Shown in pieces: positions 37,363-58,683 of a stretch of 64,000 nucleotides of DNA (position 1 is its first letter; every line of letters begins with the position of its first letter). The stretch lies in the IMG/VR virus record IMGVR_UViG_3300042542_006078. One strand, written 5' to 3'. The position numbers were made by a program, and so were the translations under genes. The notes under the pieces were generated by a model. The model did no database searches. It saw only the letters and a program-made list of their open reading frames with translations, and had not been told where the DNA came from. The stretch comes from a virus. Its lineage: Duplodnaviria > Caudoviricetes.

Positions 37363-37722
37363 TCAGCGAGATGGGCGAGAAGAAGAGCTAGTGGTCTGGG
37401 TGGTTGCGCTCTGGGCTGGAGTCTTAGCCACTGGATTGGTGACTGGCGACTTCTTTGCGGCCTTCTTCGTAGCGGTTGCAGCAGTCTTCTGCTTGCTGGT
37501 TTGAGTGGTTTCGCCAAAATTAACATCACTGAAGCCATAGGCCTTTGCGAAGTTGCGAGCGGCACCAACTACAGCCGAACGGGTTGGAAACATAGTTGAA
37601 TTGTCGGCCTTGCGAACCAACTTAAAAGGACGACCACCACACATGGTGACAGTTCCTTCAAAAACTTCGGCATCGCTGGTGCCTTTACGACTGGTGATGC
37701 GAACTGGTAGAGTATTACTCAT
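37363..37722 (-). CDS. Small basic protein with Lys/Ala/Thr-rich tail
   Basis: AAGGA RBS; visibly GC-richer codons; TKKAAKK tail. Confidence 0.75.
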   Translation of the reverse strand: MSNTLPVRITSRKGTSDAEVFEGTVTMCGGRPFKLVRKADNSTMFPTRSAVVGAARNFAKAYGFSDVNFGETTQTSKQKTAATATKKAAKKSPVTNPVAKTPAQSATTQTTSSSSRPSR

Positions 37723-37739
37723 TGCTTGCTGTCCTTTCG

Positions 37740-37758
37740 CCGTCTCAATGTGACGGAT
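37740..37758 (-). promoter_or_regulatory. CCGTC/GACGG leader hairpin
   Basis: mRNA sense ATCCGTCAcattgaGACGGcgaaaggacagcaagcaATG. Confidence 0.55.
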
Positions 37759-37799
37759 TTCTTCCTAATGCTTGGTGGCAAAATCCACCGAACAGGAAA

Positions 37800-37828
37800 A
37801 TTATAAAAGAATTTAATGGCAGAATCAA
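37800..37828 (-). promoter_or_regulatory. Sigma70-type promoter TTGATT-N17-TATAAT
   Basis: Perfect -10, 4/6 -35, 17-nt spacer, upstream of gene starting at 37722. Confidence 0.55.
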
Positions 37829-38523
37829 GAATAATTCAAAGATTTCATCATAATTGGATGAAAATTTTTTATTTTGTCATAAGGAAACTTGATGTCTGGA
37901 GGTAAACATTCAAGGAATGTGGGCGACAAAGAGTGTTTGTTGCTTGGTCTTTCACGCTTTTTATGGAATTCGCTTATAGAATTTGCATATTTGGAAAAAA
38001 ACTTGTTGACATCTAAAGAAGGAACATTCTTTTCCAAATCGAAACTATCAACCACACTTTCAATTGTTTCGCAGACAGACTCTAGTTGTATTTTTTTACC
38101 ATCATCTCCGATACGACTGAAGTCAATAAACCACAACATTGTTTCTTCGTCGTACATGAATAATGGATTTCTAAGACCAATTTCTTTATGAGCTTGAATG
38201 TAGTCTTTGATCTGGCAAAACCACATCCTTGGACGGCCATTAAGATAATTTTGAAAATAAAACCAAGCTATTATTGACTTAAAACTTAATATAAGAACAT
38301 TATTTTTTCTTTGGGTTTGAAAAGCATTCCTTAAACAAAACTCACAAAAAAAAGTTGAATCTGGTCCAAGTTTTTTACAATAAGTATAATTTTTTGAATC
38401 ACTTTCGCATTTTTTGAGGCAAAATTCGCAGTAGCGAATAAATAAATCAGATAACTCTCCTGATGATGGCATCAACAGGGTTGACAGTTGAATTTGACTC
38501 ACATTCATAGTTTGTAGTTTCAT
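37825..38523 (-). CDS. Hypothetical protein with CxxC motifs
   Basis: CEFCLKKC, CEFC. Confidence 0.7.
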   Translation of the reverse strand: MKLQTMNVSQIQLSTLLMPSSGELSDLFIRYCEFCLKKCESDSKNYTYCKKLGPDSTFFCEFCLRNAFQTQRKNNVLILSFKSIIAWFYFQNYLNGRPRMWFCQIKDYIQAHKEIGLRNPLFMYDEETMLWFIDFSRIGDDGKKIQLESVCETIESVVDSFDLEKNVPSLDVNKFFSKYANSISEFHKKRERPSNKHSLSPTFLECLPPDIKFPYDKIKNFHPIMMKSLNYS

Positions 38524-38596
38524 GTGTGATAAATTTCACAAACTGCATACATAATAATAAGTGAGTCATCAAAACTCAATATGAGGCAGAAAAATT

Positions 38597-38821
38597 ATGA
38601 ATACATTTGTTAAATGGGCAGAAAAAACCAAAAAAGAACTTCCTGTTTACATGCAGGATGAAGCAACACGCCGTGCTGGCATTGCTTATTGGGCTTATCC
38701 AGATGCGTATGTTCGCAATCAATATCCAGATGCTTGGTTTACTCCATACGCAGCCGATGCTCCATTCAAGCTTGGTTACGGAAAAGGTGGTCCTAAGGCG
38801 AATAAACAGGTGGATGGCTGA
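38597..38821 (+). CDS. Small GIAYWAYPD-motif protein
   Basis: GAGG RBS; starts MNTFVKWAE. Confidence 0.75.
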   Translation: MNTFVKWAEKTKKELPVYMQDEATRRAGIAYWAYPDAYVRNQYPDAWFTPYAADAPFKLGYGKGGPKANKQVDG

Positions 38822-39132
38822 TTAAAAGTTTCATTCAATGGGCAACTGACAATAAGTTTGAACTACCAGTTTTTCAAACAGATGAAGGCGGTGGCAGCAC
38901 TGCAAGAGGTGGCATTGCTTATTGGGCATATCCTGATGGATATATCAGAGCGCATTATCCAGATGCTTACTTTATGAGTCGTGCTGCTGATGCCTTATTC
39001 AAGATGCATCCCGGCCCGCCAATCACTAAATACAAACACCATGTCAGTCGTCACATGACATCTCCCAACTATGCGATTGGGCCAGATAGTGAAATTGAGT
39101 ACGAAAAGGAAAAAGATTACGAAACAGAATGA
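38821..39132 (+). CDS. Uncalled 103-aa paralogue of upstream gene with apparent ATT start
   Basis: IKSFIQWATDNKFELPVF..GIAYWAYPDGYIRAHYPDAYF..AADA.FK; in-frame TAA at 38803-38805 and no ATG/GTG/TTG between it and the conserved region; AGGTGG 7 nt upstream of ATT. Confidence 0.75.
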   Translation: MKSFIQWATDNKFELPVFQTDEGGGSTARGGIAYWAYPDGYIRAHYPDAYFMSRAADALFKMHPGPPITKYKHHVSRHMTSPNYAIGPDSEIEYEKEKDYETE

Positions 39133-39138
39133 AAACAG

Positions 39139-39167
39139 AAAACCCGCTCTTTTGAGCGGGTTTTTTT
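39139..39167. terminator. Bidirectional intrinsic terminator
   Basis: aaaacccgctc-tttt-gagcgggttttttt. Confidence 0.9.
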
Positions 39168-39247
39168 GTTTAGCTTCTTGCAATTTTAATTCGATTTGAC
39201 AGGTATAGAAAAATTTGCATCATGTATTTTTACTTATTCAATATTAA

Positions 39248-39889
39248 TCATTTGTATTCATATGATGATGGATCTATTCTTTCTTTATAAAGATCCATTT
39301 TTGTATTATAGAAGCTTTTGACTTTTGGATTATTTTTTGATATGAAATTATATTCTGCGTGATGTCTTTCTTCAGATCCTTTTGGCAAATCTCCGACTAG
39401 TATGTTTTCAAGAGACTTAATGTAATTAGAATTTGCCCACCAAAAGTTTCCAGCAAATAAAGATATATTATAATATGATATCCATTCTGCGCCACAAACA
39501 TCATATTCGTCAAGAGCATCTATGCAACTTTTGTGTTTGTTTACAACAAAGTATTCTAAATATTTTCTCCAACTTTTTATATTAGAATTATCTTTTCTTA
39601 CTGCGCCTTTTGTGTGAATGTACCAAATCTTACATGGTTCTATTGTTTGACACATTTCATGCATTTTCCTTAATGTCTCATTCTCTCCTTTTTTTATGTT
39701 TTCATTATGTGCAACTATCTTTGCCTTCGGTAATAAATTGATTTTTGGCATTGCTCCAGAAACACCAATATAAACATTTTCAGTGATGTCTAGCAACCCA
39801 GAACTATTTAGCAATTCAACATGTTCTTCATATATCGATTGCCATATTCCTATGTTGCCAATATGGTAAAAACCATTTATTCTACTCAT
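39248..39889 (-). CDS. Putative glycosyltransferase-like protein of large viruses
   Basis: WYIHTKG, WRKYLEYF, AGNFWWANS.YI motifs recalled from large-virus glyco genes. Confidence 0.5.
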   Translation of the reverse strand: MSRINGFYHIGNIGIWQSIYEEHVELLNSSGLLDITENVYIGVSGAMPKINLLPKAKIVAHNENIKKGENETLRKMHEMCQTIEPCKIWYIHTKGAVRKDNSNIKSWRKYLEYFVVNKHKSCIDALDEYDVCGAEWISYYNISLFAGNFWWANSNYIKSLENILVGDLPKGSEERHHAEYNFISKNNPKVKSFYNTKMDLYKERIDPSSYEYK

Positions 39890-40009
39890 AATTCATATTC
39901 TTCAAAAATGTTGAAATTAATCTGAGCCTTATATTATTTGAATGAAAACACCTCTTGGTGTCCTACTCTTTGGTAGGAACTGATTGCCAAGAAGTATTAA
40001 AATTCATCA

Positions 40010-40348
40010 TTAGATCTTCGCTTTTTTGACTCTATTTTTACGATCTTCGTCATTGATGCTTTGGGTGTCATTGGGAACCATTTGTGGAACCCTCTCCCAA
40101 TAGCCCCATTGATCATCGTTTTGCGGGTTCTGGAATACCATTCCTCTCTTCCAATACTTGTTCAATAATTCTTCAACTCTTTCTTTTGATAGTCCAGATT
40201 CTTTGGCAATAGCAGCAACACTTCTCCATTGCCATTTGGGATTCCTAGCCAAAGCGATGAAAAAATCCTGTTCTTCGTCTCCGGCCTTGCATCCCTGCGG
40301 GTAAACATCTGTCCATTTTGGTGGATTTTTCATGATTGCTCCAATCAA
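40010..40348 (-). CDS. Hypothetical protein, possible winged helix
   Basis: WRSVAAIAKESGLSKERVEELL HTH-like segment. Confidence 0.55.
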   Translation of the reverse strand: MIGAIMKNPPKWTDVYPQGCKAGDEEQDFFIALARNPKWQWRSVAAIAKESGLSKERVEELLNKYWKRGMVFQNPQNDDQWGYWERVPQMVPNDTQSINDEDRKNRVKKAKI

Positions 40349-40530
40349 ATTATCATTTACAATAATAAGAATGATTTATTGTAATTGTTTGAGTTATTCA
40401 AAAAGTATTTTCTTTACATACTATATTATTATACATGATGGCGAGAAAATAAAAACTCGTAATTTTTGTTTTTAGCAACTTGTTATTCAATAAAGCATCA
40501 TGAGAAAGAAAAACGAAAGAGCGAGGCAAA

Positions 40531-41016
40531 ATGAGATATTCTCCAAAACCCAACCGACTAGAACGCAGAACGATCAATGCCGAAAAACTTGCCAACAATA
40601 TGGGCGGTTCAGGCCTTTACATCTATGAAAACAATACGAACAGCGATCTAAAATTACCAAAGCCAACCGCTTCTGGTGTGCGTGTGGTTGGTCCTCGCAA
40701 ACGATTTCAGGGCGATAGCTATTATTTGATTTGGGTAGGCAGGCCTATGAATCTCCTTCGTTTAATTGAAGAAATCACACCCAAGAAAACAACGCAAGAA
40801 ATTGCTGAGGAAATTGCAAGGAGAAATTCCCCTATGAACGAACAAAAATTGATTTTGGATCAGCCAGATACCATCACATCAAAAGGCAAGATTGAGCATG
40901 TTGTCGATAACGAGCATCCAGTCCAACCTCTGAATGATTCAACAGCATCCAAGCCAGCAGTTGATTTTCTTCTCAATGAGAATCCACTTGATGGTGTTGC
41001 TATCACCAAAGGTTGA
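40531..41016 (+). CDS. Hypothetical protein
   Basis: GAGG RBS; 161 aa. Confidence 0.7.
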   Translation: MRYSPKPNRLERRTINAEKLANNMGGSGLYIYENNTNSDLKLPKPTASGVRVVGPRKRFQGDSYYLIWVGRPMNLLRLIEEITPKKTTQEIAEEIARRNSPMNEQKLILDQPDTITSKGKIEHVVDNEHPVQPLNDSTASKPAVDFLLNENPLDGVAITKG

Positions 41017-55116: not shown

Positions 55117-56103
55117 ATGAAACCAGATTCAGGATCACATCAACAACGACCTTACGATCAATGCAATGAAATTGCAAGTGTTCCCGATCCCATTCTAGAT
55201 CAACCGCCACCTTTTTGCGATCCCGATTCCAATCCAAATCTGAGAAGTGTAAATGATGAAAGCATGAACTGGCTTAAAGACCAGACTATGAAAAAAACAG
55301 GTTTCGGGGCAAATGCAAATAGCGATCCAATGCAAAAGGGTAAAATACTCAATGACCCGGATGCAAATAATCGTGCTGTACTTTATCGCTATTCAAGAGG
55401 TCTTCGTGGAAGCGACGAGGCCATGCTGGACCTTTTCAGGAATGTCATTGTGATTGACGAAGACGGCAAGGCTTGGCCAGTACCAATAATGCTTGGTCCT
55501 CCTGAAAAAGCTGTTGCTGCTATGATTCAGGAAAATGTAAGAAAAGATGAAACTCTTGTTGTTAACCGTATTAGACTTCCAATGATGGCAATGACACAAA
55601 CCAACATTGAATATGATATTAATAGATACACATATCATAAGGCTCTCAATTATTTCTTGGACGAAGAAGGAAAACCGTCAATAACACAGAGCGAAAGATA
55701 CAAAAAAGATACAATTTTTGGATTTGCGAGGGGTATTCCTGTCAATATGGGGTACACCGTAACTGCTTGGACACTGTATAGAGAAGACATGAACCAAATA
55801 GTAGAGCAAATAATGACAAAATTTAGCCAAGTCGCATATATAAGAGTGACTGGTGTACCATGGGAAGTGATTGTCAAATTAGACTCTGTTGCCAACAACC
55901 TGAACAATGAGCCGGGAGATCAGCAAATTAGAGTAATAAAATATGAATTTAATATGACGGCACAAACATATATACCACAACCAATCGAACGCAAGAAGGC
56001 TGTTCTGAGTGCTAAAGTTGATTTTGTTGACGGATTGACAGATGAAACTGTAACAGAAGTTTTGGCGAGAATTGAACAGTCAGTAAAGGAATTAGAATGC
56101 TAG
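55117..56103 (+). CDS. gp15: Tail terminator/sheath stabiliser, T4 gp15-like
   Basis: VPIMLG..EK, RLPMM, YDINR, PVNMGYTV..W..DMNQIVEQI; directly upstream of sheath. Confidence 0.75.
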   Translation: MKPDSGSHQQRPYDQCNEIASVPDPILDQPPPFCDPDSNPNLRSVNDESMNWLKDQTMKKTGFGANANSDPMQKGKILNDPDANNRAVLYRYSRGLRGSDEAMLDLFRNVIVIDEDGKAWPVPIMLGPPEKAVAAMIQENVRKDETLVVNRIRLPMMAMTQTNIEYDINRYTYHKALNYFLDEEGKPSITQSERYKKDTIFGFARGIPVNMGYTVTAWTLYREDMNQIVEQIMTKFSQVAYIRVTGVPWEVIVKLDSVANNLNNEPGDQQIRVIKYEFNMTAQTYIPQPIERKKAVLSAKVDFVDGLTDETVTEVLARIEQSVKELEC

Positions 56104-56322: not shown

Positions 56323-58683
56323 ATGGCAATTCTTAAAGGTTTTCCACCATCTAACACTATCAGCCCAAGCGTTAGAATTGCAGAAAAAGACCTGAGCTTC
56401 ATTGCGCCTGAGCAATCTACACATGTTGCTGGTTTGGTTGGTTTCGCCTCTAAGGGTCCAATCAACCTTCCCATTTCTGTTAGCACCTCTCGCCAATTGC
56501 ACACTATATTTGGCAATCCTCATCCTGATACCAGCGATCCATTTCTTCTTTATGCAGCAGACCAGTATCTTTTGGTTTCCAATACCCTTTATGTGGTTCG
56601 TGTTGCTGATACAGATCCGGTAAGCGATGAGCAAGCTCTCACCGCTAGTGTTGATGTGCCTGCTGCTGGTACAATTATCGAAATTATATCTGACACTGCT
56701 GGCCCATACACTTTTGATGAAGACAGCTTCTTCCGATGGAAACTCAACGATTCTCTCTCAGATAAGACTCTTGTTGTTTTGGCAGGAATTTACTCTGTGA
56801 CTGAATTGGTTTCCGAGTTGAACAATCAGATTGATACGCAATTAGACGGAATTGAATTCTACGAGAGCGACACCAATACAATCGCTGTTCAAACCGTTTG
56901 GGCCTATGGTCCAGATGCCAGCTTGGAATTTGTGTCAATTCAAAACGCCATCTACGGTGGCGCTGTTTCTGACGGCTTATCAATTCGTGACAACCCAACT
57001 GGTTTGGGCACTGGTATGACCCGTGCCTCTGTGACCGGATCAGCAGATCGTTATCCAGCAAACGGCTATACCGCTTCTGGACACTACGATCTATCAGGAT
57101 TCACAGATCCTGTTATCGAGATCGTGATTGACGGTACTGACAACATTCTGATTGATCAGGTTGTTCAGACAATCACTTTCGCTGCTGGCGCAAACTATTC
57201 AAATATCGGTGACATCGTGACTGATATCAACGATCAGAAAACTGAAAACGGCGGTACACTACCCGGTGGTTGGACAGCAGTTGCTTCAGGATTCTCTTTG
57301 AGATTTGTTACAAATGCTCACGGTGCCGATTCTCGACTCTACATTAAGCCAGCAAGCGTTTCTGCTTTCGGCCTCAGCACCACCACCAAGTCAGGAACAA
57401 CTCCTTCCGGCGAAAGTGGCGCAATTGATATTGAAACTTTGGGTTTGGTAACTGGCGGTGCAAATACAGGTGGCGATGTAACATTCACCATCAACGCTGA
57501 TTCTCCCGGTATCGATGGGAATGACACTCAGGTTGTAATTAAAAACGATATCTATGACAACAATTTCACAGTTGAGATTTATACCAATTCTGTGCAAGTT
57601 GAATCATGGGGAGGCCTTACCAAGGATGATGCAAGCCGCTTCTATGTTGAAACCTATCTTGCTCTAGTAAGCGATTATATCAGAGTATTGGACGACACTG
57701 CAATTGCAGCCGCTCCCGCAGATGGCACCTACACCTTGACAGGTGGATCAGATGGTATCCCCGCTGACCCAGATCAACAAGATGTTCTCCTGATGGGAAG
57801 CCCTGTTGGCTTCACAGGCATCTATACCTTGAGCGAACCAGAACAGGTTAACATCGACCTTATCGCTGTTCCCGGTCACTCAAGCACAGCAGTCGTTCAG
57901 GAACTTCTCGCTTTCTGCCGTGATTATCGTCAGGATTGCCTAGCAATTATCGACGCACCATTCGGCTTGACTGTGAAAGAAGTTGTATCGTGGCAGAACG
58001 GCGCACATCCTCTTAACAATGTTCGCTTTGATAGCGACTTTGGCGCACTTTACTGGCCATGGGTTAAGATTTATGACTCCTACAACAAGGTTGATGTTTG
58101 GTGTCCTCCTAGTGGCTCCATCATGGCTGTTATCGCTCGTAGCGATTTTCTTGGCGCTCCTTGGTTTGCCCCAGCCGGTTTGACCCGTGGTATTGTCCCC
58201 AATATTACCGATGTCTACAATCGTCCAACTTTGGAAGAGCGTGACCTTATGTACGGCAATCGCAACTGCGTGAACCCAATCGTTCAGTTCCCTGATGTGA
58301 ATGGTTTCGTGGTCTTCGGACAGAAGACTTTGCAGCGTATGCCGACTGCTCTGGACCGAGTAAATGTTCGTCGTCTCATGTTTTACATCGAGAAGGCAAT
58401 TCGCACCGCAAGCCGTGCTTTGCTGTTTGATCCAAATGATGAAGTTTTCCGCTCAAGGTTCGTGTCTTTGGCCGACAATATCTTGAAAAATGTTCAAGTT
58501 GGTCGTGGCCTAACTGCTTATATCATTAAGGCCGATGCCGAATTGAACACGCCGGATGTCGTTGACCGAAATGAATTCCGTGCAAGAATTGGTATTCAAC
58601 CAACCCGTGCCGCTGAATTTATGTTTATTGAGTTTTCAATCCATAGAACTGGCAGCTTCGCAGCAGGAGCCGAAACATTCTAA
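56323..58683 (+). CDS. gp18: Tail sheath protein, T4 gp18-like
   Basis: SPSVRIAEKDLS, GFASKGP, YWPW, WFAPAG..RG, FGQKT..ALDRVNVRRL, EFMFIEF. Confidence 0.97.
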   Translation: MAILKGFPPSNTISPSVRIAEKDLSFIAPEQSTHVAGLVGFASKGPINLPISVSTSRQLHTIFGNPHPDTSDPFLLYAADQYLLVSNTLYVVRVADTDPVSDEQALTASVDVPAAGTIIEIISDTAGPYTFDEDSFFRWKLNDSLSDKTLVVLAGIYSVTELVSELNNQIDTQLDGIEFYESDTNTIAVQTVWAYGPDASLEFVSIQNAIYGGAVSDGLSIRDNPTGLGTGMTRASVTGSADRYPANGYTASGHYDLSGFTDPVIEIVIDGTDNILIDQVVQTITFAAGANYSNIGDIVTDINDQKTENGGTLPGGWTAVASGFSLRFVTNAHGADSRLYIKPASVSAFGLSTTTKSGTTPSGESGAIDIETLGLVTGGANTGGDVTFTINADSPGIDGNDTQVVIKNDIYDNNFTVEIYTNSVQVESWGGLTKDDASRFYVETYLALVSDYIRVLDDTAIAAAPADGTYTLTGGSDGIPADPDQQDVLLMGSPVGFTGIYTLSEPEQVNIDLIAVPGHSSTAVVQELLAFCRDYRQDCLAIIDAPFGLTVKEVVSWQNGAHPLNNVRFDSDFGALYWPWVKIYDSYNKVDVWCPPSGSIMAVIARSDFLGAPWFAPAGLTRGIVPNITDVYNRPTLEERDLMYGNRNCVNPIVQFPDVNGFVVFGQKTLQRMPTALDRVNVRRLMFYIEKAIRTASRALLFDPNDEVFRSRFVSLADNILKNVQVGRGLTAYIIKADAELNTPDVVDRNEFRARIGIQPTRAAEFMFIEFSIHRTGSFAAGAETF

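Follow-up and report, generated by a model that had tools for sequence, protein, structure and literature searches.

The window, that is, the whole 64,000-nucleotide stretch of viral DNA analysed here, comes from a T4-like myovirus and has a low GC content of about 36%. Its genes include those for a gp15-type tail sheath stabiliser (55117-56103) and for a tail sheath (56323-58683). Two tandem paralogues, a short gene A and a long gene B, were found at 38597-39132. The features of the A-B locus, with the related contigs L001/L064 and L061 for comparison, are as follows:

38526..38561, + strand: putative promoter region of the A-B unit, predicted from a weak sigma-70-like match (GTGATA-18-CATAAT)
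38597..38821, + strand: gene A, the short paralogue, 74 aa; ATG start at 38597, TGA stop at 38819-38821
38808..38813, + strand: Shine-Dalgarno-like (SD) AGGTGG within the 3' end of A, 7 nt before the ATT; anti-SD duplex energy -7.2 kcal/mol
38818..38823, + strand: junction CTGATT, in which the TGA of A (38819-38821) overlaps the ancestral start position of B, now ATT (38821-38823); TGATG in L001/L064, TGATT in L061; G-to-T at 38823
38821..39132, + strand: gene B, the long paralogue, 103 codons from the ATT, with an intact frame and an acidic C-terminal tail; TGA stop at 39130-39132; 73-91% identity to full-length homologues of 101-102 aa
39137..39173, + strand: strong intrinsic terminator closing the A-B unit, with a 13-bp stem (6 GC pairs) and a T run; identical in L061 and L001

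B lies in the -1 frame relative to A, and its frame opens past the TAA at 38803-38805. ATG, GTG and TTG are absent from this frame between 38806 and 38973. The sole in-frame canonical start is the ATG at 38974, codon 52, which would give a product of 52 aa. The initial annotation, which described a duplicate without a canonical start, was correct on this point. It was also correct in placing an ATT at the upstream stop codon, 7 nt after AGGTGG; the ATT and the TGA of A have one A in common. The CTG at 38818-38820, which is in frame with B and adjoins the ATT upstream, is a second near-cognate candidate start. The frame of B in the window stays open over 103 codons, and no frame-disrupting lesion was found in it. 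The acidic tail is found in B only; A ends without it.

The putative promoter scored 9/12, and shuffled sequences did equally well. The ATAATAATAAG at this position is similar to CTAAATAAG, a motif that precedes family members in other phages. The T4 late promoter TATAAATA was found five times in the window against 4.1 expected; because this motif is not enriched, the promoter assignment of the A-B unit stays tentative.

BLASTP aligned A and B with 34 identities over 62 aa (55%, E = 2e-23). The Ile encoded by the ATT was placed opposite Met1 of A (MNTFVKWA vs IKSFIQWA); the ATT sits at the ancestral start position. The claim that 38821-39132 duplicates 38597-38821 thus held. A search of 5.8 billion proteins returned 38 homologues, 22 of them full-length (101-102 aa, 70-81% identity, starting with MK[ST]F); one of the 38 begins with V and one with M-I-K-S-F (P0028). 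In viral contigs, 59 loci of the family were detected. A single short copy is the commonest arrangement among phages with the family, and the short (A-type) and long (B-type) forms stand in tandem at about a dozen of the loci. Since the tandem pair recurs in at least 12 phage contigs besides the window, the duplicate represents a real gene family and not a chance reading frame. The A-B junctions of the relatives are TGATG (L001), TAATG (L003, L065) or gaps of 2-16 nt.

An exhaustive profile search gave 59 clusters at 50% identity, all of standalone proteins of 38-100 aa. A, B and these clusters share an N-terminal helix, MK[ST]F.QW, and a core, R.GIA.WAYPD.Y.R..YPD..F...ADA. Compared with the other family members, B adds a tail of 25-30 aa (PGPP..KHHV.H..PPDYAIGP.GE...EKE.DYETD) that is confined to the clade with the tandem pair. 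The GIAYWAYPD motif had been noted at first as unfamiliar, and the searches agreed with this. The family had no match in Pfam, PHROGs, ESM Atlas or Foldseek, the best hit of a PDB profile search was not significant (E = 0.42), and the GenBank phages (INPHARED) gave neither a DNA nor a protein match. The family consists of small proteins, is uncharacterised and is restricted to phages. The structure prediction suggested earlier was obtained with AlphaFold2, and its quality was poor. B reached a pLDDT of 51.7, and A a pLDDT of 71.5 and a pTM of 0.37, with a short N-terminal helix and otherwise little regular structure. As the models are poor or mostly coil, they were left uninterpreted and gave no reading of the motif.

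One contig (L058:2438-3520) encodes a 360-aa protein with the ~65-aa core of the family at its N-terminus and a long Gly/Ala-rich basic C-terminal region, which had no Pfam or PHROG match. This is the sole fused form of the family that was seen. Family members were also found on three contigs binned to MAGs labelled Chloracidobacterium, Acidimicrobiaceae and Neisseriaceae (L104, L105 and L106). These contigs are probably mis-binned phage DNA and are unreliable as a host signal.

The neighbours of the A-B genes are kept in 46-50 of the 59 loci. They encode proteins of 112 aa (40010-40348, - strand), 161 aa (40531-41016, + strand) and 119 aa (37363-37722, - strand). The syntenic block spans 37363-41016 in the window, and the 112-aa product is winged-helix-like. 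A Cys-rich 232-aa gene (37825-38523, - strand) is common to 25 loci. A 732-bp segment (39270-40001) is present in the window and absent from the ~99% identical L061 and L001. A short repeat that ends in GATCT flanks it, and it carries a 213-aa ORF (39248-39889, - strand) for which neither Pfam, above cut-off, nor PHROGs gave a match. The adjoining 50 bp (39217-39264) are heavily substituted, with 14 differences. The region 39217-40001 looks like a gain or loss of a gene cassette by recombination.

The start position of B was compared among relatives. The nearest contig, L001 (= L064, 43 kb), matches the window across several kb with 98.5-99% DNA identity. At the junction, L001/L064 has ggcTGATGaaaagtttc and the window ggcTGATTaaaagtttc, that is, TGATG vs TGATT; this junction can also be given as ggcTGATGaaaagtttcattcaatgggc in L001/L064 and ggcTGATTaaaagtttcattcaatgggc in the window. 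This indicates that an ancestral, coupled ATG has undergone a G-to-T substitution at 38823 in the window, and a point mutation, at first listed only as an alternative, was thereby borne out. The first residue of the 32 other distinct long-form proteins was M in 28, V in two and I in two. Other starts in the family are GTG (P0003, L008) and TTG (L034). Because the ~99% identical sister has TGATG and 28/32 long-form proteins start with M, the ATT arose, judged from these comparisons, by a recent point mutation specific to this lineage; it is not a conserved design. The comparison with relatives, in which an ATG was to refute the initial annotation, gave a divided answer: the ATG that was seen speaks against a designed AUU start, and the hidden paralogue itself was confirmed.

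A one-base difference from a sister contig could also arise as a sequencing or assembly error. The true codon would then be ATG, and B would be an ordinary coupled gene. A degenerate pattern scan of metagenome contigs found TGATT again in L061 (Ga0049081_10000286), a 19.8-kb contig separately assembled from another sample. L061 is 99.1% identical to the window, with 23 mismatches over 2575 aligned positions nearby, and within A it differs at three synonymous positions (38680, 38707 and 38806). The same T in an independent and non-identical contig makes an error very unlikely. In addition, the ATT lineage differs from L001 in B by 13 more substitutions and two indels. We regard an error, which had been raised earlier, as highly improbable. 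The ATT allele was retained while about 0.9% divergence accumulated, and it is present in two assemblies.

Another explanation is that B has no independent initiation of its own. It would be made either through a programmed -1 frameshift near 38806-38820 that fuses it to A, or from the CTG at 38818 only. The frame of B is -1 relative to that of A and open from 38806, the SD-like AGGTGG lies just upstream, the CTG is in frame, and P0028, with M-I-K-S-F, starts one codon before the Ile. However, no slippery heptamer of the X XXY YYZ type was found in 38806-38821, where the sequence reads CAG GTG GAT GGC TGA, and no stable structure was found downstream, where folding gave no gain in stability over shuffled sequences (MFE z = +0.92). 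In the relatives, moreover, A and B are separate ORFs with their own ATGs, in varying relative frames and at variable spacing, so the frameshift from A into B proposed at first was not supported. As for the CTG, it is no better than ATT as a start in published measurements (bioRxiv 10.1101/063800). We believed that this explanation is improbable, if less so than an error. A separate candidate, an alternative genetic code reading TGA as Trp, was rejected; A would then continue in a frame unrelated to the paralogue.

The A-B junction resembles the known -1 nt stop/start pairs (TGATG/TAATG, e.g. E. coli trpE-trpD; reviewed in PMC12548453) in that the stop and the start share a base and the upstream ORF contains the SD. 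Such overlaps support translational coupling (PMC12548453; PMC10666635). L001 has the canonical TGATG of coupled pairs. In the window, the stop of A overlaps the downstream start position, no terminator lies between A and B, and one is located after B. Since the ATG of B in the relatives overlaps or closely follows the stop of A, B would normally be coupled to A. In contrast to the pairs of the trpE-trpD type, the downstream start in the window is now ATT, so the predicted coupling would act on a near-cognate codon.

The initial annotation had also compared the ATT with the IF3-sensitive regulatory AUU starts of infC and pcnB. The AUU of infC is conserved and underlies the autoregulation of IF3. 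Both genes are confirmed AUU-start cases of E. coli (bioRxiv 10.1101/063800), and they share with the window an AUU at the initiation position behind an SD. However, only two near-identical contigs have the AUU of the window; the relatives, including the sister contig, have ATG, GTG or TTG. A start that is not conserved does not fit such a regulator, and the analogy is not supported. The ATT case is no evidence for a new mode of initiation, regulation or mechanism. Another comparison is with start-codon polymorphisms and start-loss alleles of accessory genes, such as the non-canonical starts among variants of the E. coli lac operon (PMC11445065), in which a natural single-base start variant lowers the expression of a non-essential gene within a population. 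Compared with such variants, the present case occurs in a phage and concerns the downstream member of a tandem duplicate.

Lesions of B were also found in other lineages. In L006, which is more distant and GC-richer, the homologous start (L006:1079-1387) reads TAATA, that is, ATA, compared with TAATG in L003 and L065. No canonical start was found upstream of this ATA. It lies behind GGAGG, and the protein is otherwise well conserved; the sole canonical start in frame, a TTG, lies 14 codons further downstream and would drop the conserved N-terminal helix. When the ATA allele was scanned for close relatives, only the contig of L006 itself was returned. In L004 and L005 (two metagenomes; both at 2501-2806), codon 77 of the long paralogue is changed from AAA to TAA. 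The first 76 residues of L004 equal those of L002, and the 24-codon tail past the TAA is still open and recognisable, with three replacements vs L002. The TAA represents a recent truncation to about the length of A or else a candidate for read-through. In P0030, which is otherwise a copy of P0005, the N-terminal half is frameshifted. The ATA, TAA and frameshift lesions, together with the prevalence of phages with a single short copy, indicate that B is a clade-specific dispensable duplicate. The same lesions, together with the ATT of the window, allow for a stronger statement, that independent freshwater T4-like lineages have knocked down or truncated B repeatedly since losing or reducing it pays on some hosts; for instance, a host defence may sense B or its acidic tail. 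We consider such an advantage of loss unlikely. If it were true, weakening the start of a coupled gene would be a quick and reversible way to dial B down.

The A protein is identical in the window, L061 and L001, and the changes on the ATT branch fall in B. Compared with L001 and polarised with seven outgroups, this branch carries M1I and the following replacements in B:

38950-52, + strand: S44A
39061-63, + strand: P81S
39067-69, + strand: D83N
39088-90, + strand: G90S

B in the ATT lineage also has a duplicated GTC codon (39047-39049), an extra codon found in no other sequence, and has gained a GGC codon in a GGC-GGT-GGC run. In total, it differs from L001 by 13 substitutions besides the start and by these two indels, both multiples of three. 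S44, P81, D83 and G90 are kept in 31-32 of the 32 other long-form proteins. Near-invariant columns make up 42 of the 101 columns (42%) and hold all four replacements, which is the opposite of the pattern left by purifying selection. Between the window and L001, A shows 0 nonsynonymous and 5 synonymous differences and B 7-8 and 4-5, respectively (Fisher p about 0.035, from small counts). The differences are clustered, reaching about 6% over 38750-39090 compared with about 1% in the flanks. Instead of decay after loss of the start, the replacements could therefore reflect a tract acquired by recombination from an unsampled phage. B is identical in the window and L061, and selection after the change from ATG to ATT is for this reason not readable from this pair.

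These data bear on a further explanation, in which the ATT is a selected, functional weak start. The A:B ratio would be tuned down, as in a heteromer or for dosage, by exchanging ATG for AUU and strengthening the SD; B would still be needed and be made by termination-reinitiation. The intact ORF, the TGATT overlap and the AGGTG at 8 nt provide a good context for it. The G at 38812 is derived vs L001 and L065 (GTT to GTG, synonymous in A, strengthening the SD) in the same lineage as the ATT, and the allele was kept through about 0.9% genome divergence in two assemblies. A second lineage (L006) combines a non-canonical ATA behind GGAGG with a conserved protein, the GTG and TTG starts in the family show that start strength varies naturally, and short overlaps are enriched in gene pairs for heteromeric complexes (PMC10666635). 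On the other side, B took four replacements at residues invariant in 31-32/32 proteins and an inserted codon when A remained unchanged, and the ATT is conserved in two near-identical contigs and no further. The change at 38812 could be a compensation for the weak start. However, the SD duplex energies range from -7.2 to -10.0 kcal/mol for the ATT and ATA alleles and from -0.1 to -9.2 kcal/mol for the ATG alleles. The two ranges overlap, and SD compensation is not supported by them. A selected weak start is a possible explanation, and we consider it doubtful.

The explanation that we favour, with somewhat better than even confidence, is that the ATT is a start-codon knock-down. B would be a strongly down-tuned copy that the phage can probably do without; its constraint would be relaxed and its loss in an early phase, and it would not be a gene regulated by AUU by design. 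The tandem duplicates A and B form one unit ending at the terminator 39137-39173, and in the relatives B would be made through translational coupling to A. In the lineage of the window, a single G-to-T change at 38823, which is real and heritable, turned the ATG into ATT. What remains would be weak initiation at the AUU or at the preceding in-frame CUG. In E. coli reporters, these two codons reach roughly 1-2% of the level of AUG (bioRxiv 10.1101/063800), and a value of about 0.3% is given for ATT (PMC10666635). Initiation may be raised somewhat by the AGGTG SD and by ribosomes terminating on the overlapping UGA. The output of B would now be a small fraction of its former level. The open 103-codon frame, the in-frame indels, the SD at 7-8 nt and the overlap with the stop fit a maintained low-level expression of B, and the ATA of L006 behind GGAGG, with its conserved protein, fits this as well.

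For annotation, this means that standard gene callers miss B or take a 52-aa fragment from the ATG at 38974. The comparison with relatives illustrates how a conserved gene can be hidden by a one-base change of its start. The TGATG and TGATT alleles, in phages that are about 99% identical, provide a clean natural pair for gauging how far coupling rescues a near-cognate start. The recurrent lesions mark B as an accessory gene of this uncharacterised phage family, one that is dispensable or, under some conditions, costly.
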